From the NCBI GenBank assembly GCA_964362175.1, contig CAYIDD010000003.1, positions 22,430-76,915 on the forward strand: a stretch of DNA of 54,486 bases, given 5' to 3'. This DNA comes from an uncultured Candidatus Saccharibacteria bacterium (GTDB lineage: Bacteria > Patescibacteriota > Minisyncoccia > Phycocordibacterales > UBA2100). The notes beneath the pieces were generated by a model, which did not search any database, was not told where the DNA came from, and saw only the letters and a program-made list of their open reading frames with translations. The stretch's first letter is position 1. Each line of letters starts with the position of its first letter. Below are positions 16,333-53,639 of this stretch, piece by piece. The position numbers and the translations under genes are program-made.

Positions 16333-17697
16333 ATGACTACCTTTCCTATGAGTAACCGAGAACTTTGGCAGAACGCCCTCGTCCAGATCGAGCTCGGCAC
16401 CTCTGAGGCATCGTTCCGAACATGGTTTCGGAACACCGATATCGCAAGCCGCGACGGGGGGACCGTTCATGTCGCGGTTCCTTCGAAGATCGTGAAAGAG
16501 TGGCTCATGGAGAAGCACCACAAACTCATCCTGAAGGCCCTGCGCGGTCTCGATAGCTCAGTCCGAACCGTCGAGTATGCTGTCCATCGGTCTGCAGCCG
16601 CTCCCGCCGAGCGAAAGACGCCCCGCCCGCAGGCCCCCGACAATACCGCGCTCGATCTCGGCAGCCTCTACATCGATAAGCGCGACAACCTGAACCCCCG
16701 TTATACATTTGAGACCTTCGTCGTCGGCCCCTTCAACGAACTCGCGCACGCCGCCGCAAAAGCGATCCTCGACAAACCCGGCCTCGCGTACAACCCGCTT
16801 TTCATCTACGGCTCTACCGGGCACGGAAAGACGCATCTCATTCAGGCGGTGGGGAATTATTTCAAGAAATTACACGCGAACAAAAAGGTTTTGTACGTTA
16901 CCTCCGAGCGTTTCTCGATCGACTACATCAATGCGGTGCGTGCGGGACATGCCAACAATTTCAAAGATCAATACCGCCAGTACGATGTCCTCATCATGGA
17001 CGACGTCCAGTTCATCGCGAATACCGAGAAGACGCAAGAAGAGCTGTTCCACCTCTTCAATGCAATGCGGGACAACAACAAACAAATCGTATTCTCCTCA
17101 GATAAGCATCCGGCGCTCCTCATGGGGCTTGAGGAACGTCTTAAGGGGCGCTTCGGGGCCGGCATGATCGCCGAGATCCCCGAGCCCGATGTGGAGTCGC
17201 GTATCGCCATCATCAAAGCGAAGATCGAGCAGCATGGGTTCTCGATACCCGAGGACATCATCCAATATATCGCTGAAAACCTACGTGGAAACATCCGCGA
17301 GCTTGAGGGGGTGCTCAACATGATCGTGTGTAAGTCCCAGCTGAAGGGGAAGGCCATCTCGCATGCAGATGTCCGCGCGCTTATTAAACACAATGTGAAG
17401 CCAAGTCGAGGTGTGTCTGTCGATGAGGTCGTTCGCCGTATCGCCCAGTATTACGACATTGCCGAGAAAAGCATTTATGAAAAGACGCGCAAGAAAGAAG
17501 TGGTGAAACCGCGGCAGATTATTATGTATATGTTGCGCGAAGAATTCAGTGTCTCGTACCCCTCGATAGGGGAGAAGCTTGGCGGCCGCGACCACACGAC
17601 GGTCATTCACTCATGCGAGAAGATAAAAGAGGAAATAAAATCAAACATCGCACTCGAACAAGAGATCGATCACATCCGCACACTCATCCACGCATAG
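16333..17697 (+). CDS. dnaA: chromosomal replication initiator DnaA
   Basis: AAA+ Walker A GSTGHGKTHL, Walker B LIMDDVQF, and the C-terminal DNA-binding helix (GGRDHTTVIHSCEKI). Confidence 0.97.
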   Translation: MTTFPMSNRELWQNALVQIELGTSEASFRTWFRNTDIASRDGGTVHVAVPSKIVKEWLMEKHHKLILKALRGLDSSVRTVEYAVHRSAAAPAERKTPRPQAPDNTALDLGSLYIDKRDNLNPRYTFETFVVGPFNELAHAAAKAILDKPGLAYNPLFIYGSTGHGKTHLIQAVGNYFKKLHANKKVLYVTSERFSIDYINAVRAGHANNFKDQYRQYDVLIMDDVQFIANTEKTQEELFHLFNAMRDNNKQIVFSSDKHPALLMGLEERLKGRFGAGMIAEIPEPDVESRIAIIKAKIEQHGFSIPEDIIQYIAENLRGNIRELEGVLNMIVCKSQLKGKAISHADVRALIKHNVKPSRGVSVDEVVRRIAQYYDIAEKSIYEKTRKKEVVKPRQIIMYMLREEFSVSYPSIGEKLGGRDHTTVIHSCEKIKEEIKSNIALEQEIDHIRTLIHA

Positions 17698-17927
17698 TGC
17701 TGTGTATAGAGTGTGAGTACGAGCAGAACAACTATCGGATAACTAAAGACTTATACACAGGGAAGAAATGTAAAAAACACTACCAACAAACTATTCCAAT
17801 TCTCCACAACACTTTTCAACATTAATTTACACTCAAAAAACCCAATACCCCCAACACAAAATCTACTTTCCCCCAATCTCCACACCTATAATAGTAGTAA
17901 TAGATCTTATATAGAATATAAAAGTAT
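17698..17927. promoter_or_regulatory. candidate oriC (DnaA-box cluster plus AT-rich unwinding element)
   Basis: Near-consensus DnaA boxes are ttatacaca (17751-17759) and ttctccaca (17800-17808), with weaker atctccaca (17876-17884). A very AT-rich tract at 17886-17927 runs up to the dnaN start. Confidence 0.5.
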
Positions 17928-19025
17928 ATGAAGATAACAACAATAAAAGAAAAAATACTGAACGCGGTTCTCTTGGCGGAACGTATCACAGGAAAGAAGG
18001 AGTCTCTCCCCGTACTTTCTTGTGTGTTGTTTAATGTGAAAAACGAACTTACTATTCTTGCGACCAATCTTGAGGCTGGTATCGAGGTAGTGGTGCCGTG
18101 TGAGATCAATGAGGGTGGGGTTATTGCGGTGTCCGCAACGGTGCTTTCACAAACATTACGATCTATTTCGGGGGAGAAGATCATATTGAGGTCGGAGGAG
18201 GGGAATCTCATTGTTGAGTCGCGGGGGACAAAGACACTCATAAAAGCGACACCTTATGAGGAATTTCCGGCACTTGGGGTGGCGAAGGTTGGGAAGGGGG
18301 TACGCGTCGCGCGGAAGGAACTCATATGGGGTATCCAGTCGGTCTCGTACGCAGCGTCTCCTTCAATGATCCGACCGGAGTTGGGGAGTGTGTATGTATC
18401 GATCAAACAAGGGGCGATCGTATGTGTTGCGACCGACTCTTTCCGTCTCGCCGAAAAAACGATCCCCGGTGTTACGGGCACACAGAGCACCGAACTCCTT
18501 ATTCCCCTCAAACATGCGCTCGAACTCGTCCATGTGTTGGAGCGTATTGACGCGGTGGAGGTGGAGTTATCCACGGACGATTCCCAAATGTCTGTTTTTG
18601 TGGACGGCGTGCGGTATATCTCGCGCATCGTTGATGGCACATTCCCGAATTACAAAGAAATATTACCGAAAAAGTTTACGACGGAGGCGACCCTCCTCAA
18701 GGGTGATTTTTCGGAGATGTTGAAGAAGGCACGTGTCTTTTCAGGTAACGACCAGCACGTGGGGCTGCATGTGTACCCGAAACGAAAGATATTCAGCGCG
18801 ACGGCGCGGAGCGCGGAGGTGGGCGAGATGTCGGATTCGGTGGACGCCGCGCTCACAGGCGAAGATCTCGACATTAATTTCCACATCGGATATCTCGCAG
18901 ACTGCCTTTCTGTCATCGGGTCAGATTCCATTAAGTTAGGTTTTTCCGGCGCGGGGAAGCCCCTCGTCATCAGTGGCGTATCCGACGCATCATTTACCTA
19001 CCTCGTGATGCCTTTGAATAGGTAG
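17928..19025 (+). CDS. dnaN: DNA polymerase III beta sliding clamp
   Basis: 365 aa with the typical three-domain length, directly downstream of dnaA. The C-terminus ends ...YLVMPLNR. Confidence 0.95.
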   Translation: MKITTIKEKILNAVLLAERITGKKESLPVLSCVLFNVKNELTILATNLEAGIEVVVPCEINEGGVIAVSATVLSQTLRSISGEKIILRSEEGNLIVESRGTKTLIKATPYEEFPALGVAKVGKGVRVARKELIWGIQSVSYAASPSMIRPELGSVYVSIKQGAIVCVATDSFRLAEKTIPGVTGTQSTELLIPLKHALELVHVLERIDAVEVELSTDDSQMSVFVDGVRYISRIVDGTFPNYKEILPKKFTTEATLLKGDFSEMLKKARVFSGNDQHVGLHVYPKRKIFSATARSAEVGEMSDSVDAALTGEDLDINFHIGYLADCLSVIGSDSIKLGFSGAGKPLVISGVSDASFTYLVMPLNR

Positions 19026-23481: not shown

Positions 23482-23560
23482 TTACCGTGCGCTGTGACTT
23501 CCATAGTACACGTCATTTCTCGCACAACCTCTCTTATCCCCACATGTTTCCTTTGCAGCA

Positions 23561-24007
23561 CTAACGGTCGGAAGCTGCGCGTCGAACAAGAAATTTTCTG
23601 ATAAAAGATCGAATTCGTCGGATTTCTTTCCGGTTATTTTCCGGAGGACTTTTAGCGACTTCATTTGCAAATAGGTACAGGTCATCGTTGTCTACGGCGA
23701 TCCACCATCCGTTTCTATAAAGAAAGTAAAGAAGGGTCATCACAGCAACGCGCTTGTTGCCGTTTTGGAATGGATGGTTCTTTATCATGAGGTAAAAGAG
23801 AATCGCTCCCTTGCCCACGTGCCCACGGTATAGACTTTTCCCACTAAATTTTTGAAAAGGAGTTTTTAAACAACTTTCCAATCGGTCTGGAAAGCGTGTA
23901 TTGAAGGCTGGTATCGGTTCGCCCCACTCCATCAGCTCCTGAGCAAGGGCGTGAGCAACGGTTTCGATTTGGCGTACCGATATTTCCACCAGGGTAGACC
24001 GAGCCAT
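23561..24007 (-). CDS. doc: Doc (death-on-curing) Fic-fold toxin
   Basis: Doc-type Fic motif HPFQNGNKRVAV. Confidence 0.85.
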   Translation of the reverse strand: MARSTLVEISVRQIETVAHALAQELMEWGEPIPAFNTRFPDRLESCLKTPFQKFSGKSLYRGHVGKGAILFYLMIKNHPFQNGNKRVAVMTLLYFLYRNGWWIAVDNDDLYLFANEVAKSPPENNRKEIRRIRSFIRKFLVRRAASDR

Positions 24008-24022
24008 ATATTTTCTCTCGCA

Positions 24023-24283
24023 CTACTCTTCCTTGCCGAGGCGACGAAAAGCCACATTGTATTGTTTTACGGCTTTTTTTACGACACGTTCAATTTCGTT
24101 TTTTTGCTCCGCAGAAACAGAGGAGCCAAGAATTGTCTCAAGGTCTGCTCGGGCTATAATGTAATTTCTACCAACCTTTTGTGCGCGAAGTCGCCCTGCA
24201 GTAATTTTCTTTAAAATGGCCACACGACTAACCCCCATAATTTTGGCGATCTCTGAAACGGAGAAGTGTGTTTTTTGAGTCAT
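24023..24283 (-). CDS. excisionase/MerR-type HTH protein, putative antitoxin to Doc
   Basis: FSVSEIAKIMGVSRVAILKKITAGRL is an Xis-family HTH. It lies 15 nt upstream of doc. ATG at 24283; the ORF-track start at 24289 is GTG. Confidence 0.65.
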   Translation of the reverse strand: MTQKTHFSVSEIAKIMGVSRVAILKKITAGRLRAQKVGRNYIIARADLETILGSSVSAEQKNEIERVVKKAVKQYNVAFRRLGKEE

Positions 24284-24344
24284 GTCCACAGGTTATCATA
24301 TGATAACCAATAGCACAAGATTTAATATGAGGTCTATTTTGGCC

Positions 24345-32319: not shown

Positions 32320-32490
32320 TGCGATGAACGCGTTTTTTGATGAGGTGCAAAAGCACTTGAGCGGTTTGAAGAAGCCCTGAAACTCGCCGTCTAAGCGCTC
32401 CGGTGCTATATTTTCGGTACCCGCCCATGTGTTCATATGGACGGGGCAGTCGGAGAATATGAAAGTGAACTTTCATATTGCTCCTCTTTG

Positions 32491-32563
32491 CCGCCCATAG
32501 CTCAGTTGGTAGAGCGGCTCCCTTTTAAGGAGAAGGTCCCAGGTTCGAATCCTGGTGGGCGGA
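32491..32563 (+). tRNA. tRNA-Lys(UUU), no encoded CCA
   Basis: Acceptor ccgccca/tgggcgg, D-arm gctc-agttggta-gagc, anticodon loop cTTTTaa, T-arm ccagg-ttcgaat-cctgg, discriminator A. Confidence 0.9.
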
Positions 32564-34153
32564 CACGATAGGACTGGACTCGTATAACGAGTCGAAATGT
32601 CCTTGTTTACTTGCCTTTTTCGTAGGTTCTAACGGTTCGTGGAGGATAGCCACCTCTGCGGCTAGCTTTTTCATTGGTAGAAGCATATTCGCCCCATCGA
32701 ATATGACTTTTCTGTCTTTCAGGGTCAGGTTCGAACCGAGCGCGAGAAAGATGCCTCTACGTTCAACGGGTGTGCCGTTCTTGAATTTGTTGCGCGCATT
32801 GGTCACGAACGACAACGCGAATTCCATATTGTCAGCCCATGTGTTGAACCTGCCGTCTGTATCTGCAAGCGACTCGCTGAGACGCTCCTTTTCTTCCATG
32901 GCGGCTACTTTCTTCTCGCGTAGCTCGTCCTCGGTGATCTCGTTATTGGCTCGCATATCTATAAGGCGCTCGATTTTGAGAATCGTGGAGTTGTAAGCTC
33001 GCTGCTGTGCTTCAATCGCCGCACCGCGAGATCCACGATCCTTTTCGATCTCTTTTCGGATCCACTTCATGCCCCAAAGGTGGAATGACTCTGGGATCTC
33101 CAAGGACGCGAGCTCGGCATCAATCTGAGATTCAAGGACTTTTTCCTCTACCGCACCCTGCGAGCAAGGGATCTTGCTCCGCTTAGTGCAGTGATAGTAG
33201 ACATAGCGGTGAGTGTTTCCATTCTTTTGGGCCTTCTTCTTTTCCTCGGCAGTAATCGACATGGCACATTCGCCGCATTTCATCATGCCGGTAAATGCGA
33301 ATACGTGGGTTTGCGGGCGCGGCCTGCCTTTTCTACCGAGAAGAATCTGCACCCTGTCATACTCTGCTTCTGTAATCATCGCTTCATGCAACCCTTGATA
33401 CCAAGTCCCGCTGTTTCTCGGAAACTCGTATTTACCATAATAGAACGGGTTCGTAAAAAGATAATAGATATTGCTTCGCGACATCTTTCGTCCCTTGCGA
33501 GAACGCAGACCCCATTGCTCCGTTGCGATTTCTAGAAGCGAGGATGGATTGTGAACACCTCTCAACATTTCGTCCCACAGCTTGCGAACGATCTCGAAAC
33601 GCTCGGCATCCTTATATATCGTGTTGCTTCCCTTGGCGTTCGTCTTGGTATTGAGATAGCCAATCGGCGGCTGTACCGGATACCAACCCATCTCTGCTTT
33701 CTTCTTGAGGCCTCTTGTGACGTTGACCGCGAGATCGCGCGAGTATTGATTGGCCATACCGAACTCGACACTCATCAGCAGCACGTTGTCTTGGGGGTAG
33801 TAGCTGCGCTCATATGATCGGATGTGTCGAATCGCGCTCATCTGTAGCATGTTGATTACTCGTCCGCCGTCCACCATATTTCGCGCGAGGCGGTCAAGTT
33901 TCCAACACAAAATTCCGTCTGCCTCGCCTCTCTCCATCTGGTCGAGCATATCCTTGAAGACAGGTCGTCCGAGTGCTTTTGCAGACTTTGATTCTTCGAA
34001 GACGCGGACGATGCGCAGATTTTCTAGCCGTGCGATTTTCTCAAGTTCACTTACTTGAGATTCGATGGAAAGCACCTGGCGGTCTTCCGACTCAGTAGAT
34101 TTCCGGGCATAGAGAAAATACCTGGGCGACTTACTACTTTTCATGTTCATCAT
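32525..34153 (-). CDS. large serine recombinase (integrase)
   Basis: Resolvase-type N-terminus YARKSTESEDRQVLSIESQ, a recombinase domain, a zinc ribbon (CGECAMS...YYHCTKR) and a coiled-coil region. The last 12 codons plus the stop run antisense through tRNA-Lys. Confidence 0.9.
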   Translation of the reverse strand: MMNMKSSKSPRYFLYARKSTESEDRQVLSIESQVSELEKIARLENLRIVRVFEESKSAKALGRPVFKDMLDQMERGEADGILCWKLDRLARNMVDGGRVINMLQMSAIRHIRSYERSYYPQDNVLLMSVEFGMANQYSRDLAVNVTRGLKKKAEMGWYPVQPPIGYLNTKTNAKGSNTIYKDAERFEIVRKLWDEMLRGVHNPSSLLEIATEQWGLRSRKGRKMSRSNIYYLFTNPFYYGKYEFPRNSGTWYQGLHEAMITEAEYDRVQILLGRKGRPRPQTHVFAFTGMMKCGECAMSITAEEKKKAQKNGNTHRYVYYHCTKRSKIPCSQGAVEEKVLESQIDAELASLEIPESFHLWGMKWIRKEIEKDRGSRGAAIEAQQRAYNSTILKIERLIDMRANNEITEDELREKKVAAMEEKERLSESLADTDGRFNTWADNMEFALSFVTNARNKFKNGTPVERRGIFLALGSNLTLKDRKVIFDGANMLLPMKKLAAEVAILHEPLEPTKKASKQGHFDSLYESSPIVSAHQDSNLGPSP

Positions 34154-34230
34154 AGTGCCGTGGTTGATTGGTCTTGTAAGCGGGTGCCTGTTGCTTGCCG
34201 CGCCCTATAGGGCATAACGAGCAACAGGCA

Positions 34231-36138
34231 TTATTCTGCTGGTGGATCTCCCAGCCAGTTTTCGTCGGGTAAGAGATGGTAGAGGTTTTGATTCGGCGCG
34301 CCTCCCGTACTCTTGATTGTTAGCCCCTTCGACACCGCTTCTTTCCGTGTTTTCATTTCGGCATAGCCCTGGCTCACTAGGTCTCTAAGCGCAGACCTGA
34401 CGGTTGAGGTACCTCCGACTCCAAGAGAGACCAGGTCTTCAACAGAAAGCCACGTATCTTCTGCGCCGAGCGCATCAGTAACTCTTTCGGTCACTTTGCT
34501 TTCTTCGCGTTCCTCGTCCTTGTGGGGGCGATAGATAAACCCCCAAGGTGATGAACTCACAAGCAGTTCAAATGGATTGATTTTCTCATCAGCTTTCAGC
34601 TTTTGCTGTCGAGCGACTATAAACGTCTCTCCCTTTTCACTTTGAGCGTAGAGCGACAGGTGACCGTGCACAGCCGCATTGATCGCGCTGCTCCCTCTAG
34701 TTTCCTCGCCATCGTTTTTATTCCCACCAAATGGAGGCTTTTTTCTGTTGTGATGCGTGAAGATTACAGTGAGACCTTTTTGCGTGAATTTCTTCAACTG
34801 GTCGATTACCGACTGCATTTCCTGCGAGCTGTTTTCCTCCTTGTCGTGTACGCTCCGCAAAGAATCGAAAATAATCATCGTGATGCCTTTTGATTCGGCT
34901 TCAGCAAGCAGTTTGGTCACGTATGCGTCCGTCAGCTTTATTCCTTCGAGTACATGAAAGAAGATGGGCAAACCAACGAACTCATCAGCAAGCATCTTCA
35001 TTCTGTTTTGGATGAGACGCTCGCTATCCTCCTCGTTCACGACCATCACCAATTGCTTCGTTGTCTCGAATGTCCCCCAAAGCATCGATCCCTTCGCCGT
35101 CGCGAGCGCGATTTCCAAGATCACCCAGCTTTTGTAGTGATTCGGAGGGGCGCTAATCATATTGATCGTGCCTGACTCGAACAGTTTTTCGACAGCCCAC
35201 TGTGCCGCGGGAAACTCCCGCGTCATGAGCTCATCGAGAGAAAATGCCGGCCGGAATGCTCTCCCTTCCTGAGGTTCGGTGTGAGGTATTCGGGGATTTG
35301 CTCGCACCCGGCCCCACGCTGACTCGAATTGTTTGTCCGCTTCTCCGCCCGCCGCGTGGAAGTTATCTCCGATCTCGAAGTTCTTATCGATGACAGCGCG
35401 ATACATCGTGTGGGCAATGTCCCGCGAGCCAAGGTCGCCAAACTGGTTGCATATTTTCAGGGCGAGACGGAAAGACTTCAAATGTCTTTCCCCCTGCTTC
35501 GCATACAGAACTTCTTCCATTGGAAGAAAAGTCTTTTTGTGTCCGATGATATCATGCTGCGGAAGCAGTCCTGCGAAGTCTGATTCGCTGTACCTATTGT
35601 CAGTCACGTTGCCGAGCTTCATTTCTTTTCCTGAGCCGTCCTTCCAGTACTTTCCAAAAGGGATGCGGAGAATCCGAGCGATGTCTCGCGCCGCCTTGTC
35701 GCCGTCGAAAGCTTGAGTGAGAGCGTCTTGAATACGCTCGTACTCGCGCTTCTGGTCGTCCGTCGGGTTTATGATTGGCTCTTTCAGAATCCAGTACCCG
35801 TGAACCCCGCGCCCCGTCTCGACCATAGCGGTGAAAGGGATGCCTTTTTCTGCTGCCAACAACGCTGCCTCGTTCTTAATATCGCGCACGGGTTTATCTG
35901 GGTTATCGATTTCAACAAAGTGTGCATTGAGCGAGGTAACGAACTCGATTTTTCGGTGGCGATTTCGAGGGAAATTCGCGAATCCGTTCACCGTGAAATA
36001 CGCGCCCCATCGGCCATAGTTATTCAACTCAATCACATCTCGCAGTTCACTCTTGTGACGGGGAGGGTGTTCCTTTTTCTCATCAAGACTAACGAACACA
36101 GGGTCACGAAACATCTTCAGGAATTCTTCTTGCGTCAT
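34231..36138 (-). CDS. primase-polymerase (AEP) fused to a RecA-like/AAA_25 ATPase and a C-terminal wHTH
   Basis: AEP motifs HFVEIDNPD, TGRGVHGYW and ARILRIPF. A P-loop-like SAPPNHYKSW is followed by VMVVNEEDS and IIFDSLRS. ATG at 36138; the ORF-track start at 36159 is GTG. Confidence 0.75.
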   Translation of the reverse strand: MTQEEFLKMFRDPVFVSLDEKKEHPPRHKSELRDVIELNNYGRWGAYFTVNGFANFPRNRHRKIEFVTSLNAHFVEIDNPDKPVRDIKNEAALLAAEKGIPFTAMVETGRGVHGYWILKEPIINPTDDQKREYERIQDALTQAFDGDKAARDIARILRIPFGKYWKDGSGKEMKLGNVTDNRYSESDFAGLLPQHDIIGHKKTFLPMEEVLYAKQGERHLKSFRLALKICNQFGDLGSRDIAHTMYRAVIDKNFEIGDNFHAAGGEADKQFESAWGRVRANPRIPHTEPQEGRAFRPAFSLDELMTREFPAAQWAVEKLFESGTINMISAPPNHYKSWVILEIALATAKGSMLWGTFETTKQLVMVVNEEDSERLIQNRMKMLADEFVGLPIFFHVLEGIKLTDAYVTKLLAEAESKGITMIIFDSLRSVHDKEENSSQEMQSVIDQLKKFTQKGLTVIFTHHNRKKPPFGGNKNDGEETRGSSAINAAVHGHLSLYAQSEKGETFIVARQQKLKADEKINPFELLVSSSPWGFIYRPHKDEEREESKVTERVTDALGAEDTWLSVEDLVSLGVGGTSTVRSALRDLVSQGYAEMKTRKEAVSKGLTIKSTGGAPNQNLYHLLPDENWLGDPPAE

Positions 36139-36140
36139 GA

Positions 36141-36281
36141 TTATTTTTCGCCGATGCACACGGCACGATAAAGATTGATAAGTGCCTGCGCGCGAGCAGC
36201 GGCTTCTTCAAAAGAAAGTTCCACGCCGTACCGTTCTTGGTACAGCTTTCTGAACTCCTCGATTGCATCTCGCGGAAGCAT
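36141..36281 (-). CDS. small helical protein (46 aa), possibly coupled to the primase gene
   Basis: Hand translation gives MLPRDAIEEFRKLYQERYGVELSFEEAAARAQALINLYRAVCIGEK*. The stop lies 2 nt before the primase ATG. It is too short for the ORF track. Confidence 0.35.
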   Translation of the reverse strand: MLPRDAIEEFRKLYQERYGVELSFEEAAARAQALINLYRAVCIGEK

Positions 36282-36326
36282 GTCCGCGATAATATCGACC
36301 AGGGCGTTGACTCAATTTCGGGTCAA

Positions 36327-37001
36327 CTAGTAATTGCGGCAGAGTGCCTTATTTCTCCATGAGATTAGTCGGTCTTTTGTGCCGTACTTTTTTTGCACTC
36401 GTTCGTTTAGGTTGTACATGGCATCTCGTACAGGGGGCATATGTTTCTTGACGTCTAGACGTCGCGTATCGAGCCCGGTCATGTACGCCGCGACGTTCTC
36501 CCAGGAGATCGCCGCCCCAACAGGTTCGCGAAAAATGACTTCGCAAAGATCAGCTTCATTCTTGTGCGGCGGGAGCGGACAAGGGGTACCGTTTACGAGC
36601 AGAGAAGATGTCCTCGCGTCAAAAGATATTTCGCAATCTACAAGGCGTACCTTTTCTATGGGAATGTTCAGGCTCTCTCGAATCTTTTTTGCGAGGGTTT
36701 TGAAGTCCAACGAGACCTCAAGTCTAGCGAGTGTGTGATATTTTACGTCTAATTCTGGCGGCTCAATCGGGCGCTCCTTGTTCCTGTAGTGGAGCACCCA
36801 GAACTTCTTTATCGTGACGGGGTGGTTCGCAGCCAGGGAGCGAAGCGCATCGCCCAGCTCTTCTAGCCGAATATGGTTCTGTTGCAGGTCGTTGAGAGTG
36901 ATTGCAATATCTTGAAAGCCCGAAGGGTTTTTTACGCCAAAAGTGAACCTGTATTCCAAGACATCTAGAATCTTTTCCATAAGGATAGCGGGGGCATCCA
37001 T
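36327..37001 (-). CDS. island protein with a C-terminal OmpR/PhoB-type winged-helix DNA-binding domain
   Basis: LLVNGTPCPLPPHKNEADLCEVIFREPVGAAISWENVAAYM...RLISWRNKALCRN matches the trans_reg_C pattern by eye. Confidence 0.5.
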   Translation of the reverse strand: MDAPAILMEKILDVLEYRFTFGVKNPSGFQDIAITLNDLQQNHIRLEELGDALRSLAANHPVTIKKFWVLHYRNKERPIEPPELDVKYHTLARLEVSLDFKTLAKKIRESLNIPIEKVRLVDCEISFDARTSSLLVNGTPCPLPPHKNEADLCEVIFREPVGAAISWENVAAYMTGLDTRRLDVKKHMPPVRDAMYNLNERVQKKYGTKDRLISWRNKALCRNY

Positions 37002-37070
37002 GAGGTCGTCATGATACGCGCTTATGCCCTTCGGCTCAATGTTTGCGGGACCGTGCTAGTTTCTGGGCTC

Positions 37071-37155
37071 CCACGGCCTCCCCGGAAGCTAGTTTTGGCC
37101 TAGTTTAGCTGGTTTATCACAGAGTCCATCCGGAGAGCCTCCGGGGCTGCCGTGG
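37071..37155. repeat. GC-rich imperfect inverted repeat (14/16 bp arms) in the island control region
   Basis: ccacggcctccccgga (37071-37086) pairs with tccggggctgccgtgg (37140-37155). The interior has a ctagttt direct repeat and a ccgga/tccgg hairpin. Confidence 0.55.
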
Positions 37156-37177
37156 TGAGCCACGGGACGTTCCGGGC

Positions 37178-37315
37178 TTGATAGAACAAGCAATATCAGG
37201 TTCTTTAGGTTAAAAACCTAAGCATTTTTGATTAACTTGATATTTAATCAATCTTTTTGGAGCCTGATATAACAGCTCATTATCAGTTCCCGTTGATAGA
37301 ACAGCGCGATATCAG
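37178..37315. promoter_or_regulatory. direct repeats (operator- or iteron-like) in the divergent island control region
   Basis: ttgatagaaca-agca-atatcag (37178-37199) and ttgatagaaca-gcgcg-atatcag (37293-37315). An inverted half-site ctgatat lies at 37264-37270 and a palindrome taggttaaaaaccta at 37206-37220. Confidence 0.5.
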
Positions 37316-37575
37316 CAGCCATTCCTATATCTCCCAGAAAGGGCTAATATGGCTGGACACACCCAATATGGGAGCGACAGCTCCAAAGACCTAAACTTCG
37401 GCGACGAGGCATGGTCTAAAAGTCGGATAAGGCGCAGAGAACCCGTCATGTGGTTGCCTTATCCGCCGTATCGGGAAACCGGTGCGTTCGCGCAAGCGAA
37501 GACCCGTGGCGGGCTTTGTGCTTTCGAGAAGCATGGGCTCGCTAGGTTTATCCGTTAGAAATCTAGCAGTCCGGT

Positions 37576-37905
37576 ATGACATTCATCGGTGCATTTTTGG
37601 CCGCGTTGGTATTGATATATATTTTGAGCGTCTTCACGTGGCGAGGATTACTTTTGGCCGGATTCTGTGCCCTAATTTTTATGGCTTTGGGTATCGGCCC
37701 CGGTATCTTCGTCTTGGCATTACTAGCCGCACTCGCCTTCGTCTGCTACGCCGTCGTGTACTTCATCAAATGGCTTTTTGCTGAAAAGCCTGTCGAGCGA
37801 ACACAGGAAGAGAAAGATAAGATGGCCGAAGTGATGGCCGGTCTAGAGCTCGAACATGGAATTGGAAGAGATTCTAGGGAGTACTCTCGACCAGAAGACG
37901 AATAA
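37576..37905 (+). CDS. small 3-TM membrane protein with an acidic tail
   Basis: Three hydrophobic helices in the first ~70 aa, followed by a charged C-terminus. Confidence 0.55.
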   Translation: MTFIGAFLAALVLIYILSVFTWRGLLLAGFCALIFMALGIGPGIFVLALLAALAFVCYAVVYFIKWLFAEKPVERTQEEKDKMAEVMAGLELEHGIGRDSREYSRPEDE

Positions 37906-37970
37906 AAAGGCTCGCGCAACAACGAGGGGAAGCCGTTGATATTTCATGAAAACAGGAATACTCTGCCCCT

Positions 37971-39620
37971 ATGGCAGAGAATCCCGCAGGCTTTACTTTC
38001 AGTCTCTCCCTGAGTGTCCTTAATCACTTGGGTCGGAATCTATATCGTAGCTTCACCACAGTTCTCGGCGAAGCCATTTCAAACTCTTGGGATGCTGACG
38101 CAAAGGATGTTTGGGTATACATCGACAAAAAGCAGAACAATCTAATCGTCAAAGACAACGGCGTAGGGATGGATGCACTCGATTTTCAAAACAAGTTCCT
38201 CAAGATCGGCTACTCCAAGCGCAAAGATGGCAAAGCCGTATCGGCAAAGAAAAGGCCGTTCATCGGACGCAAAGGAATCGGGAAACTCGCACTACTTTCT
38301 TGTGCCGCTCGCATAACGGTAATTTCAAAAGTAAAAGGTGGTGATTATGTCGGTGGCGTGATCGACAATACGGGCCTCGACAAGGCAATCACGGACGACA
38401 TGTCTCCTCAGGAATATTCTCTCGAAGGGGCGGACATGGCGGCACTGAAGAAGTACACCGACGACCATAAGCACGGAACAATCATTCGATTCGAAGGCAT
38501 ACACGAGGGCATCAAACCGCACTTTGGATTTTTGAATAAGGTCGTCGCGCTCTATTTCCGATTTTCGCTCATAGACGGCTCTTTCAAGATCCACATAAAC
38601 GACGAAACAATCACCCACAGACATCTCGAAGAACTGGCGAAGAAGACGCAGTTCGTATGGCACACGCAAGGACTCAAAGACCCATTTCTCAGCAGAGGAC
38701 TCAAGAACGCGAAAGAAAAGAGAACCATAACGCTTGGGAAGGGAGTGCGCGGCTTCATCGCGTCCGTTGAGACGCCTAAAGACCTGAGCATCTACTCCAC
38801 CGGAGAACGAGTGAGCATTGACTTGTTCGTAAACGGCAGATTACGGGAAACCGACATCGTAAAACACCTCTCTATTGCGAAAGTCGCGGAGAATTATCTA
38901 TACGGTCAGATACACATCGACGACCTCGATGGGTCTGTCGATCGCTTTACTACAAGTCGCGAAGGAATTATTGCTGACGATCAGAAATATGAGGCGCATC
39001 TGAAGACCTTCAGAAAAGCTCTCGATAAAATCATTCGCGAATGGGACGTTCTTCGTCGCAAATACAGACTCGACGGGAATCCCGAAGACCCCATCTTATC
39101 GAAAAGGGAACGGAAATCAGGTGAGCTCTATAACGTGGTCGCCGGTGAATACAACCCGCCAAAGAAAGGGAGGAAGCCTAATCTGGTTGACGGCTGGGTC
39201 AACGACCTGGCGGAGGACGCACGTTTCAATTTCGGTTCGTATGCTGAATGCTTTATGTCGGAGAACCTGATCAGGAAGCTTGCGCAGAAAAAGAAAATCT
39301 CGCTGTCGAAAGAAGCGAAAGAAGAAGTCGCCAAGTGGAAGAAAGTTGAGAAAGAAATGAAGGGCAAAGGCAATCTCAGTATCGGTATAAGACAAGCGAG
39401 TTCCGATCTGGGATACTTGTCGATGAGCCACCTCGCGAATCTTGTCGACAAGAAAGATCCCGCAAAAGAAGCGTGTCTGGCTCGTGACGCGAACGAATAC
39501 CGCCCGATTAGAGACGCTCTTGCGCACACGGCACTTTTGACCGACGTTGCAAAGAAGAAGCTCACGAGCGTATTCGAGAATGTCAGGGGGCGTGTTCAGA
39601 CTCTGATTGCGGGCAAATAA
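37971..39620 (+). CDS. GHKL (MORC/HATPase_c_3-type) ATPase with a C-terminal HEPN-like Rx4H domain
   Basis: N-box LGEAISNSWDA, G1 VKDNGVGMD, G2 GRKGIGKLALLS and GTIIRF. The C-terminal YRPIRDALAHT contains R514-x4-H519 (nt 39510-39527). Confidence 0.7.
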   Translation: MAENPAGFTFSLSLSVLNHLGRNLYRSFTTVLGEAISNSWDADAKDVWVYIDKKQNNLIVKDNGVGMDALDFQNKFLKIGYSKRKDGKAVSAKKRPFIGRKGIGKLALLSCAARITVISKVKGGDYVGGVIDNTGLDKAITDDMSPQEYSLEGADMAALKKYTDDHKHGTIIRFEGIHEGIKPHFGFLNKVVALYFRFSLIDGSFKIHINDETITHRHLEELAKKTQFVWHTQGLKDPFLSRGLKNAKEKRTITLGKGVRGFIASVETPKDLSIYSTGERVSIDLFVNGRLRETDIVKHLSIAKVAENYLYGQIHIDDLDGSVDRFTTSREGIIADDQKYEAHLKTFRKALDKIIREWDVLRRKYRLDGNPEDPILSKRERKSGELYNVVAGEYNPPKKGRKPNLVDGWVNDLAEDARFNFGSYAECFMSENLIRKLAQKKKISLSKEAKEEVAKWKKVEKEMKGKGNLSIGIRQASSDLGYLSMSHLANLVDKKDPAKEACLARDANEYRPIRDALAHTALLTDVAKKKLTSVFENVRGRVQTLIAGK

Positions 39621-39625
39621 CGACT

Positions 39626-40144
39626 ATGCGTAAATACAACAGCAAGGACGCCTATAATTTCTACAAGAAGTTTATTTACAACGAGGAGAAACAGTCTCTC
39701 TTTAAGCAGCACAACTTGCCGATAGCTGGCAGCATCCCATCAATCGACTGGGAGCTTTTCGGTGCCATCCTCACGGGAGATGACCATAAAACCAGGTACG
39801 GCTCGGACTTGGAACACCACGAGATCAAGTCATCGGTGGGAGTATCGAGTTTTGAGTATCAATATCACTTGCACGGCGGTATTCAAAAGTTGGCCGACGA
39901 CATGAAAGTAGACCACATATTTATTTCCTACAGTCCCGACTACAAGAATATTGAGGTTCGGATGATTGAAGGCGCCGCCCTAAAAGAGAAGTTTGAAAGC
40001 TGGCTTCCAGGATTGAAGGCCAATTACGAAGGGGCGAACCGCAAACAAAGATACCGCCGTAGCATTGCCTACGGGATAGTGAAAAGAATCGGAAAAACTA
40101 TAATGAAAGTTGAGGGCGGCGAGCTGACGGGACTTCTAGAGTAG
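39626..40144 (+). CDS. putative restriction endonuclease (weak PD-(D/E)xK signature)
   Basis: TGDD(51-53)...GSDLEHHEIK(61-68) could supply a D...ExK site. It starts 5 nt after the GHKL gene and is convergent with, and overlaps by 47 nt, the methyltransferase gene. Confidence 0.4.
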   Translation: MRKYNSKDAYNFYKKFIYNEEKQSLFKQHNLPIAGSIPSIDWELFGAILTGDDHKTRYGSDLEHHEIKSSVGVSSFEYQYHLHGGIQKLADDMKVDHIFISYSPDYKNIEVRMIEGAALKEKFESWLPGLKANYEGANRKQRYRRSIAYGIVKRIGKTIMKVEGGELTGLLE

Positions 40145-41270
40145 GTTGTAGGAACGGGTTCAGATAGTGCTTTCCTATCCATTCTAGAGCAGGGACACAC
40201 ACGGCGTCGCCAAAACCAAATAGGACCTGGTTCAGTGAGAGCGTCGAATCAATTTTGAAGTCGCCAGCGCCCATTAGACGCGCTGCCTCCTTTTCATTTA
40301 TGAGCCGCGCATCGAATCGATTGCGTCCCACTCGGACTATGATTTGCCGCGCGCTCCCGCCTTTAGGGGTACGAAGACAGCCAGCAATTCCGTCTGTCCT
40401 GAGTTCGGCGGTAGATTGAGAAGTGCCGTCGCGCAAGCGCATGCGCCTGAAAGCCGAGTAGTATGAGTATTTCCTTTGTGCCATCTGGCTATCGATCAAT
40501 TCGCGATGATGGCTGTGCATCTGGTCGTATAGGTATTGTGACCTATCCTCAGTCCACCACTGTGCTGTGTAATCTACGATGTCTTCCAATACCGAGTTCC
40601 GCTTTGGTAAGTTTGGCAGCTGTTGGAAGAACCACCGGAGATCGCGGTTCTTGACGATGAAGTCGATTATCTTTTGCGGCCTAGCGTCAGAGCTTCTCAT
40701 TTGATACTCCTGCATGAGGTCGTCGCGGTCTACTTTCCCGATAACACTTCCGTGCACGCCCACCATAAATAGCCGTACTCTGCTCTGTGGTACGAAGTTT
40801 GACGCATCTACTCTTAGCAAGTCTACGTGATAGCCGAGATCGTTGAGGGTTCTGAGTACTAGGCGAAGGTCGTTTCCGTCGTCAGATGTGAGAAGTCCCT
40901 CTACGTTCTCCAATAATACGAAAGGGGGTGACGTTTTCATCTCATTTAAAATCCTAGCGAAGTGCCAAAAAGCGGATGACTCGCCTTTGTGAATACCTCC
41001 TCGCGCGCCTGCGACAGATAGATCTGTGCATGGGAACGAAGCATGCGCCAACATCACGCACGGCACATTCGCGCCCTGTGTCTGTGCGATATCCTCCGTG
41101 AGATAGTGACCTTCGCCGAAATGATTGTTGTAAGCTGCCGCCTTGTCCTTGTCGTAATCAAGTGCATACACAGTTTTCCAACCGGCACGCTCAAGCCCCA
41201 TGCTGACTAGACCGATCCCTGCGAAGAAGTCGGCTACTGTCCTGCTCTCAAAATTAAGCATCCGACGCAT
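40098..41270 (-). CDS. DNA (cytosine-5)-methyltransferase
   Basis: Motif I DFFAGIGL, motif IV SFPCTDLS, motif VI LLENV, motif VIII QSRVRLF, motif X-like GFGDAV. Confidence 0.92.
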   Translation of the reverse strand: MRRMLNFESRTVADFFAGIGLVSMGLERAGWKTVYALDYDKDKAAAYNNHFGEGHYLTEDIAQTQGANVPCVMLAHASFPCTDLSVAGARGGIHKGESSAFWHFARILNEMKTSPPFVLLENVEGLLTSDDGNDLRLVLRTLNDLGYHVDLLRVDASNFVPQSRVRLFMVGVHGSVIGKVDRDDLMQEYQMRSSDARPQKIIDFIVKNRDLRWFFQQLPNLPKRNSVLEDIVDYTAQWWTEDRSQYLYDQMHSHHRELIDSQMAQRKYSYYSAFRRMRLRDGTSQSTAELRTDGIAGCLRTPKGGSARQIIVRVGRNRFDARLINEKEAARLMGAGDFKIDSTLSLNQVLFGFGDAVCVPALEWIGKHYLNPFLQPTLEVPSARRPQLSL

Positions 41271-41391
41271 TTAGTTAATTGTACCGCACGCATGCGAACG
41301 TTTGGTGAACGGTGTGTACATCAAACGCTTGGTATTGCGGGATTTGCGAACGGCGAGGGCGTAGAAAGTGAGGTTCTAACGTCGTACAATA

Positions 41392-41401
41392 GGGCGGACC
41401 A
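41392..41401 (+). other. displaced 3' terminus of tRNA-Lys (putative attR core plus CCA)
   Basis: gggcgg-a-cca is followed 3 nt later by aggaaattgcaag. The same flank follows the CCA of tRNA-Arg(UCU) at 53466. Confidence 0.55.
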
Positions 41402-41478
41402 GACAGGAAATTGCAAGCCGGAAAGAGCCGCCTCGCTTCGCTCGGCGGCGCGGCAGGTTCGGGCTATTTCAAGTATTT
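41402..41478 (+). repeat. intergenic repeat family, copy A
   Basis: aggaaattgcaag..gccgcctcgc..ggcggcg..caggttcgggctatttcaagtattt. The 5' part is shared with copy B and the 3' part with copy C. Confidence 0.6.
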
Positions 41479-41493
41479 ATTCGGGACTAAAGA

Positions 41494-53465: not shown

Positions 53466-53537
53466 CATAGGAAATTGCAAGGTGGAGCTCGCCGCCTCGC
53501 AGGGCGCGGCGGCTAAAACCCATTGCAGTTTCGGGCT
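53466..53537 (+). repeat. intergenic repeat family, copy B
   Basis: It starts 3 nt after the tRNA CCA with aggaaattgcaag, then gccgcctcgc..gcggcggc..ttgcagtttcgggct. gaaattgcaa pairs with ttgcagtttc to close a ~60-nt hairpin. Confidence 0.6.
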
Positions 53538-53639
53538 GAATTCGAATTGGCGATTTCGCTTTTGGGAAAAAGAAAACTTTTTGTCATACAGAATCAAAAA
53601 TTTTGAGTTTGTAATTTGCCAGCCCGCGACTACGTTTGT

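Follow-up and report, generated by a model that had tools for sequence, protein, structure and literature searches.

The 54,486-nt window analysed here (contig CAYIDD010000003.1 of assembly GCA_964362175.1, from an uncultured Candidatus Saccharibacteria bacterium) contains a genomic island of 8,835 bp (32565–41399) next to a tRNA-Lys(UUU) gene. The genome is Kaiserbacteria-like and comes from groundwater. This element was very probably integrated by its own large serine recombinase (LSR), with the attachment site of the element (attP) in the 3′ end of the recombinase gene and the chromosomal site (attB) at the 3′ end of tRNA-Lys. The target tRNA gene is complete, lies on the plus strand at 32491–32563/4 (ARAGORN; Rfam, 71.6 bits), and ends in A73-C-A-C, not A73-C-C-A; its 3′ end reads ...cctggtGGGCGG-A-Cac, i.e., TGGGCGG-A-C and then AC in place of CA. 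The island is bounded by two plus-strand copies of the 8-bp core GGGCGGAC, one in the acceptor strand of the tRNA at 32557–32564 (attL) and the other at 41392–41399 (attR), the latter followed by CA, gac, and AGGAAATTGCAAG. Identity between the copies is exactly 8 bp, with flanking bases t/a on the left and a/c on the right. Both copies, as well as the missing encoded CCA, had been reported in the first-pass annotation of this DNA, and both observations were reproduced. By count, the 8-mer is unremarkable (4 copies, 2.4 expected); it is the context that makes the repeat significant. Its length falls within the range usual for common cores of serine-integrase prophages, among them one that also has 8 bp (PMC9303363). 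The GC content between the cores is 50.0% compared to 55.0% in the rest of the window, and none of 112 equal-sized windows outside the island was as low (minimum 53.3%), which bears out the earlier impression of an A/T-rich region. The tetranucleotide distance is maximal inside the island, and the composition break coincides with the two cores.

The enzyme encoded at the tRNA junction is a large serine recombinase, as first annotated. Its gene (32525–34153, minus strand) specifies 542 aa with resolvase (PF00239, E=3.1e-21), recombinase (PF07508, E=1.4e-7), and zinc-ribbon (PF13408, E=2.1e-8) domains, the latter two above their cut-offs. The catalytic serine motif YARKSTESEDRQ occupies residues 15–26 and is conserved across 27 relatives. 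The closest solved relative, SPbeta SprA, is remote (E=1.5e-9) and is alignable over residues 15–423. The last 13 recombinase codons (VSA + HQDSNLGPSP) are antisense to tRNA nt ~36–74; thus, the open reading frame (ORF) crosses attL.

The sequences flanking the cores, all read on the plus strand, resolve into four putative half-sites. At attL, the B half-site (32537–32561; tRNA nt 47–71, i.e., the T-arm and acceptor 3′ strand) holds GGTTCGAATCC and is symmetrical with the P′ half-site on the element side, gaCACGATAGGACTGGACTCGTATA (32562–32586), in which GGAC at 32571–32574 mirrors the tRNA T-arm. The P′ half-site doubles as coding sequence for the recombinase motif ...SSPIVSA. At attR, the P arm gttctaacgtcgtacaata (41373–41391) holds a T-loop-like GGTTCTAAC, 5 bp further from the centre than the tRNA GGTTCGAA, and is conserved in five related loci in other assemblies (L006, L007, L009, L011, and L012). 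The B′ side (41397–41493) consists of the displaced native tRNA-Lys end (G72-A73-CCA) and its trailer, and reaches the stop codon of p115, a 115-aa gene. This trailer includes a hairpin-forming 13-mer element at 41405–41417. The 13-mer AGGAAATTGCAAG has only two exact copies in the window, the second lying past the encoded CCA of tRNA-Arg(UCU) (53469–53481), and ~80 nt 3′ of both copies are alignable; the flank that the first-pass annotation had seen to be shared with tRNA-Arg(UCU) indeed starts 3 nt after both CCAs. The element does not occur in the trailers of the window's other two tRNAs, and the 13-mer was not found in any of the 89 non-Hainich loci examined. It may be a lineage-specific tRNA trailer or terminator repeat. 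The folding z-scores of the hairpin-forming elements starting with the 13-mer (41405–41480 and 53469–53545) are only −2.1 and −2.35.

Comparison with related elements positions the centre of these sites. Far ends were found in the closest relatives at 6.7 kb (L006), 8.3 kb (L007), and 9.6 kb (L012) from the tRNA. In L011, the P arm and core occur twice, with far ends at 9.7 and 10.9 kb (a spacing of 1.2 kb), and in L009 the P arm, core, and P′ arm are contiguous in the chromosome ~9.5 kb from the tRNA, which indicates tandem elements; arrays or remnants accumulate at the same tRNA in these two loci. The sequence C(G/T)TC(G/A)T(A/T)CAATA stands directly 5′ of the core at every far end found, corresponding to 41380–41391 of the window, and related elements of other hosts keep both element-side arms, cgtcgtacaata beside the far core and acgataggact beside the tRNA. 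In the window and 35 genome loci (36 in all), the post-discriminator sequence is C-A-N5-GGA(T/C)TT, and nt 80–85 of the P′ arm are the reverse complement of tRNA nt 58–63 at 53–94% per position. The P′ arm also co-varies with the variable T-stem bases (67/108 against 47.3 ± 4.1 in 2000 permutations, maximum 61), and the centre of this symmetry is between tRNA nt 71 and 72. The attP sites reconstructed from seven far-end/tRNA-end junction pairs (six loci) form an imperfect palindrome with a sole sharp dyad maximum (46% complementary positions, compared to 10–32% at other registers), whose centre coincides with that of the P′/T-arm symmetry. In the window, this centre is the GG at 32561–32562 inside the core, so placing the predicted crossover at tRNA nt 71–72. 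A T-loop-like GGTTCT(A/G)AC lies 18–25 bp from the centre in 6/7 P arms, the diverged one being that of L006 (GGTGCGAGC), and the tRNA GGTTCGAA sits 13–20 bp from it; the outer motif is not clear in the P′ and B′ arms. An outer motif 5 bp further out in attP than in attB is reportedly a hallmark of serine-integrase sites.

All four att forms were found: attL and attR in the window, attP in L093, and an unoccupied tRNA-Lys in L090. The expected sequence of a circle or tandem junction is gttctaacgtcgtacaataGGGCGGACacgataggactgg, and that of the empty site is ggttcgaatcctggtGGGCGGACcagacaggaaattgcaag. L093 is a 2.5-kb Joint Genome Institute (JGI) metagenome contig (3300078213) whose recombinase is 87% identical to that of the window, and it holds gttctaacgtcgtacaata, GGGCGGAC, and acgattggactggactcgtata contiguously, without a tRNA. 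Its recombinase has 552 aa and the tail ...SPIVSA-LLYDVRT..., which fits the 555-aa product predicted by joining the two ends in the window. The circular junction proposed earlier (...gtcgtacaata-gggcggac-acgatWggac...) therefore exists as contiguous sequence in a sister element, and none was found for the element itself. In L094, where the recombinase is 72% identical, the same P′ arm is joined to tRNA-Lys(CUU).

The unoccupied site came from relatives of the chromosome. L090, L091, and L092, found via the left-flank protein, whose named matches are Candidatus Kaiserbacteria, share the window's gene order (T2SSE-TsaE-PolI-holA-p370 ... p115-SpoU-LTD-Mur-RuvA), carry none of the island genes, and have an unoccupied tRNA-Lys. 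The tRNA-Lys of L090 differs from that of the window by 3 nt, and its 100-nt upstream region is alignable with the window's, in which the native upstream region (~32386–32490) is retained and orthologous to that of L090. The unoccupied site in L090 reads GGGCGG-A-CAAGAACGAAGTG, and its trailer agrees with the displaced trailer of the window (CCAGACAGGAAAT) at 8/12 positions, as read by eye. The empty site that the first-pass annotation had suggested looking for was thus found in orthologous form but not literally. Several other candidates were rejected. The sole metagenome-contig match of the empty-site pattern (L005) lies inside a coding region without a tRNA, and the sole IMG/VR match of the degenerate attP pattern (L089) lies inside an ORF without a recombinase or a P arm; both are chance matches. 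Three loci chosen by SpoU identity (L086–L088) are island-free, but with a tRNA-Lys that differs in sequence and points the other way. The contig of L003 ends just past the 13-mer and is uninformative.

Association with tRNA 3′ ends is close to universal among the recombinase relatives examined. Database relatives number in the thousands at 50–87% identity, and a profile built from 27 relatives confirmed 577 loci in species-representative genomes, of which the best 80 were examined. These 80 loci are mostly from Patescibacteria, with others from Elusimicrobia, Bdellovibrionales, Rickettsiales, Omnitrophota, Aminicenantes, and further groups. At least 55 of them have the recombinase stop codon within a convergent tRNA gene, and the targets include tRNA-Lys, Asn, Gln, His, Ser, Trp, Arg, Leu, Met, Ala, and one called Ile. 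The overlaps between ORF and tRNA cluster at 10–13, 28–31, 40, 52, and 61–64 nt, which is essentially one reading frame. Most of the other loci have a tRNA 3′ fragment in the equivalent position; where no tRNA was called, such a fragment (T-arm and acceptor) is joined to the same element-side sequence in at least nine cases. Judging by one of them, 23 nt of a tRNA 3′ end may suffice on the tRNA side: in L010 (7900–8130), a recombinase 57% identical to that of the window stands beside a 23-nt 3′ fragment of tRNA-Arg(GCG), 150 nt downstream of the intact tRNA. The P′ arm of L010 is identical to that of the tRNA-Lys-targeting L009 element, and its core is one base off the Lys core; the L010 element seems to have used a secondary site that is near-cognate. 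Fourteen loci, mostly at tRNA-His, form a second subgroup in which the junction retains the CCA and the P′ arm is different.

These observations are best explained by the following mechanism. The 8,835-bp element would enter the chromosome by recombination through its own LSR, between an attP within the 3′ end of the recombinase gene and an attB made up of the T-arm, acceptor 3′ strand, and trailer of tRNA-Lys(UUU). The crossover would take place at tRNA nt 71–72, inside the 8-bp stretch common to attP and attB. Integration would leave tRNA nt 1–74 unchanged, convert the encoded C75-A76 to A-C, and shift the native tRNA end with its trailer by 8.8 kb, and the CCA of the integrated tRNA-Lys would be added enzymatically. 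Another gene in the window, tRNA-Arg(GCG), is likewise without an encoded CCA; enzymatic CCA addition is therefore available and the loss tolerable. Since the element resupplies only 2–3 nt of the tRNA (nt 72–74), with identical bases, insertion into the tRNA terminus with displacement of the native end stands as first proposed, but the "replacement end" of that proposal was overstated. The recombinase may read the near-universal T-loop/T-stem sequence as one half-site, with the P′ arm as a mirror copy of it tuned to the target tRNA and the P arm carrying a T-loop-like motif that is shifted outwards by 5 bp, as is typical of attP. The boundaries, the four att forms, the gene content, and the tRNA association across the recombinase group are direct observations; the exact crossover dinucleotide, the pairing of recombinase domains with motifs, the present mobility of the element, and its replication function are inferences.

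Because attP is inside the 3′ end of the recombinase gene, integration swaps the C-terminal tail of the protein. The tail past ...SPIVSA has 10 aa in the integrated form and 20–23 aa in the free form; the length of integrated tails varies with the tRNA, between 1 aa (L094) and ~20 aa, and free-form tails diverge past the seven residues encoded by the P arm. A tail swap acting as a regulatory switch is unlikely, as tails can be as short as 1 aa and the free tails are poorly conserved.

The remaining genes of the island comprise a replication module and a defence cargo. Next to the recombinase, a 642-aa protein (34231–36159, minus strand) has a solid C-terminal AAA_25 (DnaB/RepA-like) ATPase, and an AAA_25 gene holds the equivalent position in L006 and L094. 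The gene had been annotated as a PrimPol-ATPase; the ATPase part is well founded, but the primase part is weak (RepB_primase E=3e-4, and PHROG primase matches over residues 52–221). It is followed on the same strand by a 46-aa ORF (36141–36281) that is called in the public assembly and has no family match, and by a 224-aa protein (36327–37001). The latter was first annotated as a winged-helix regulator; the ORF is present, but its winged-helix match is below the cut-off (MCM4_WHD E=4e-4), so that it is only a possible regulator. A divergent intergenic region of 575 nt contains a LOOT RNA (Rfam RF03000; 37388–37500, plus strand), which heads the cargo-side transcription unit. This unit includes a 109-aa ORF without a family match (37576–37905, plus strand), a GHKL-ATPase-type restriction enzyme (37971–39620, plus strand), and a 172-aa ORF without a family match (39626–40144, plus strand); a C5 cytosine DNA methyltransferase of the Dcm type (40098–41270) is encoded on the minus strand. 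The N-terminal 369 aa of the restriction enzyme match the BbrUII/HgiDII family (NF050001; E=1.4e-81, 275 bits against a cut-off of 550, covering model positions 1–368 of 659 only), and the methyltransferase passes TIGR00675 (156.8 against 100.65). PADLOC calls REase_II and MTase_II in the island and, besides this pair, only a weak MzaB-like match. The cargo, earlier described as of a defence type, is a type II restriction-modification system. Its resemblance to this family would predict an HgiDII/SalI-like specificity for GTCGAC. PHROG matches are confined to integrase, primase/helicase, methyltransferase, and one family of unknown function. Related islands of 6.7–9.7 kb carry only the recombinase, the AAA_25 ATPase, and variable cargo. 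The element is integrative, plasmid-like, and probably self-replicating.

The tRNA-Lys locus has a history of its own. The tRNA-Lys has the opposite orientation relative to p115-SpoU in all island-free relatives (L078, L086–L088, and L090–L092) and in the island-bearing L007. The inverted orientation is seen in 3/4 island-bearing loci of this synteny (the window, L009, and L012) and in 0/7 island-free ones. Of a glutamate dehydrogenase (GDH) gene that is intact in the relatives, the window retains ~45 nt from the 3′ end, near 32340–32385 (window 32320–32490 against L090 10500–10880 and L091 7860–8220, partly compared by eye). The breakpoints of the inversion are at this remnant and at the p115 stop codon, away from the att cores, and we therefore rejected an inversion made by the recombinase. 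Second partial tRNA-Lys 3′ ends occur in L090 (10541–10670; 107 nt downstream, 16/18 identical) and in L091 (7899–8090; ~165 nt downstream, a 17-nt repeat). These extra copies look like scars of earlier integrative elements, making tRNA-Lys a recurrent integration hot spot. In L088 (5540–6471), a LAGLIDADG homing-endonuclease gene abuts the tRNA-Lys 3′ end at the same locus.

Several results weigh against integration as proposed here. The whole cassette of upstream region, tRNA, and trailer is inverted in the window compared to the island-free relatives, and the window's lineage underwent GDH deletion and cassette inversion; due to these rearrangements, one clean insertion does not account for the difference between the locus and its relatives. 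None of the collections scanned yielded the literal empty site tRNA-Lys...ggaccagacaggaaattgcaag, and the exact empty-site pattern (tRNA end + CCA + NNN + 13-mer) has no match in genome contigs. Exact look-ups of two flanking proteins returned Hainich contigs only, all with the island; 3/3 Hainich assemblies are integrated, with no empty site or circle for this exact element. As L093 is only a 2.5-kb fragment, its attP junction could come from a tandem array instead of a free circle. B′ half-sites are poorly conserved. In addition, the central dinucleotide inferred for the att cores of the tRNA-Lys-targeting L007, L009, L011, and L012 (GGGCGCAC) is the palindrome GC, which is awkward for orientation control, as a palindromic centre is reported to abolish such control in characterised serine integrases. 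Either the centre is offset by one base in these relatives, or loss of polarity is tolerated or exploited. No recombination directionality factor was recognised among the small island ORFs. No relaxase or type IV secretion family is among the Pfam, NCBIfam, and PHROG matches of the island proteins (oriT was not searched), and no capsid, tail, terminase, lysis, packaging, or capsid-redirection gene was matched in the island ORFs scanned against the same collections.

Some of these results would suit an island that is real but now fixed as an immobile remnant, with the cassette inversion and GDH loss as post-integration decay. Only the integrated form is seen in the three replicate assemblies, no directionality factor was recognised, and the locus is rearranged relative to L090 and L091. 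However, the 542-aa recombinase ORF is intact and retains its catalytic motif, the cores do not differ from each other, the P and P′ arms match those of L093 exactly or almost exactly, and the composition shows no drift towards the host; we consider such a remnant unlikely, while giving it some weight. The integrase match to phrog_95 and the primase-helicase module, of a kind common in satellites and prophages, might also be read as signs that the island is not plasmid-like but descends from a prophage, now degraded, or from a phage satellite. This origin is improbable, given that none of the virion, lysis, or packaging functions was matched in the ORFs scanned, that related islands of similar size hold nothing but recombinase, ATPase, and variable cargo, and that IMG/VR holds no matching attP.

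The inverted cassette and the statistically ordinary 8-mer also raise the question of whether the main activity of the recombinase is to invert or resolve the tRNA cassette, with a coincidental core repeat and 8.8 kb that are not bounded by att sites. The inversion breakpoints at the GDH remnant and the p115 stop codon rather than at the cores, the arms beside both cores that are conserved in elements of other hosts and contiguous in L093, and the GC break at the cores make this very improbable. We give almost no credence to a classical tyrosine-integrase island that has lost its integrase and carries the serine recombinase as cargo. It is true that tyrosine integrases classically target tRNA 3′ ends and that the older scars in L090 and L091 duplicate 16–17 nt of the tRNA 3′ end. 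Nevertheless, no tyrosine recombinase (Phage_integrase) was matched in the island ORFs scanned, and the repeat extends over no more than 8 bp. In at least 55 independent loci, the ORF physically joined to the junction is that of the serine recombinase, and both the P′/T-stem covariation and the attP dyad symmetry contradict a passive role.

The recombinase shares its resolvase, recombinase, and zinc-ribbon architecture with phiC31, Bxb1, A118/LI integrase, SPbeta SprA, and SCCmec Ccr, and the short att sites, small common core, and attP dyad symmetry are also common to these systems; the common core of Bxb1 is 8 bp. Well-characterised serine integrases are generally reported to insert into protein-coding genes or intergenic sites. 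In contrast, the group described here targets the tRNA 3′ end and has attP inside the recombinase ORF, and its similarity to solved LSRs is remote. The largest LSR survey consulted (bioRxiv 10.1101/2021.11.05.467528) classed targets by protein gene and never mentioned tRNA. Tyrosine-integrase tRNA islands, including P4-like elements, pSAM2-type actinomycete integrative and conjugative elements, and mycobacteriophages Ms6 and L5, resemble the island in their insertion at the tRNA 3′ end, adjacent integrase, functional tRNA, 3′ fragment displaced to the far end, and cargo that can include defence genes. They differ in enzyme family and chemistry and in the length of the repeat (~15–60 bp, against 8 bp here), and they restore the whole 3′ segment, whereas the element here restores nt 72–74 only and leaves the CCA unrestored. 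An attP in coding sequence, with a product that differs between free and integrated forms, is also found in SSV-type archaeal integrases and in mycobacteriophage integration-dependent immunity. Both involve tyrosine integrases, and integration splits the gene (SSV) or takes off a degradation tag, which demonstrably affects regulation; in the present element, the change is limited to a short tail of poor conservation. The literature searched yielded no account of serine integrases with tRNA ends as targets, and TIGER/Islander-type catalogues may hold uncommented cases. A genomic island at a tRNA 3′ end is of a known kind, and what is new, as far as established, is a serine-recombinase group with T-arm mimicry and attP in the recombinase gene.

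The LOOT RNA of the window scores 69.9 bits against a gathering score of 46.4 and is full length (model positions 1–121). It occurs in 7/16 islands scanned, namely in the window, L006 (7377–7496), L012 (6245–6360), L030 (4610–4735), L032 (5003–5124), L037 (7280–7398), and L039 (5484–5603), and is on the opposite strand to the recombinase in 6/7. In the six related islands, too, the match spans the full model and exceeds the gathering score. As in the window, it heads the cargo-side operon in L006. LOOT RNA is a small RNA candidate of unknown function derived from metagenomic sequence, and to our knowledge the original description assigned it no host or genetic context. Here it lies within serine-recombinase islands of candidate phyla radiation (CPR) bacteria, mostly antisense to the recombinase operon, and thereby gains a genetic context in which its function can be tested.

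Two other features of the window lie outside the island. The lowest-GC stretch (0.46) is flanked by dnaA and dnaN (16333–19025) and stands at the cumulative GC-skew minimum; it is probably the chromosomal origin, ~15 kb from the island. In a second low-GC patch (0.47–0.49; ~23560–24290), yebC and ruvB are separated by a Fic-domain gene and an HTH_17 gene that may be a small acquired toxin-antitoxin-like pair.

Taken jointly, the sequence comparisons may point to an LSR group, common in CPR/Patescibacteria and present also in Elusimicrobia, Bdellovibrionales, Rickettsiales, Omnitrophota, and others, that is specialised on tRNA 3′ ends. Its members would use the T-arm as the attB half-site, carry a co-varying T-arm mirror in P′ and a shifted T-loop mimic in P, keep attP in the recombinase ORF, and switch between target tRNAs (Lys, Asn, Gln, His, Ser, Trp, Arg, Leu, Met, and Ala) via few attP changes, with a LOOT RNA in many of the elements. 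We regard this joint reading as evenly poised between being right and being wrong. The textbook view assigns tRNA genes to tyrosine integrases and protein genes to serine integrases, and a serine group that reads the T-arm would change that. Serine integrases have short sites and need no host factors. With an attB in every bacterium and a specificity apparently set by few mirror positions in attP, the group could yield retargetable integration tools, which could reach CPR organisms that are still hard to engineer. If true, the mechanism would also explain the spread of small defence-carrying elements among the reduced genomes of CPR bacteria.

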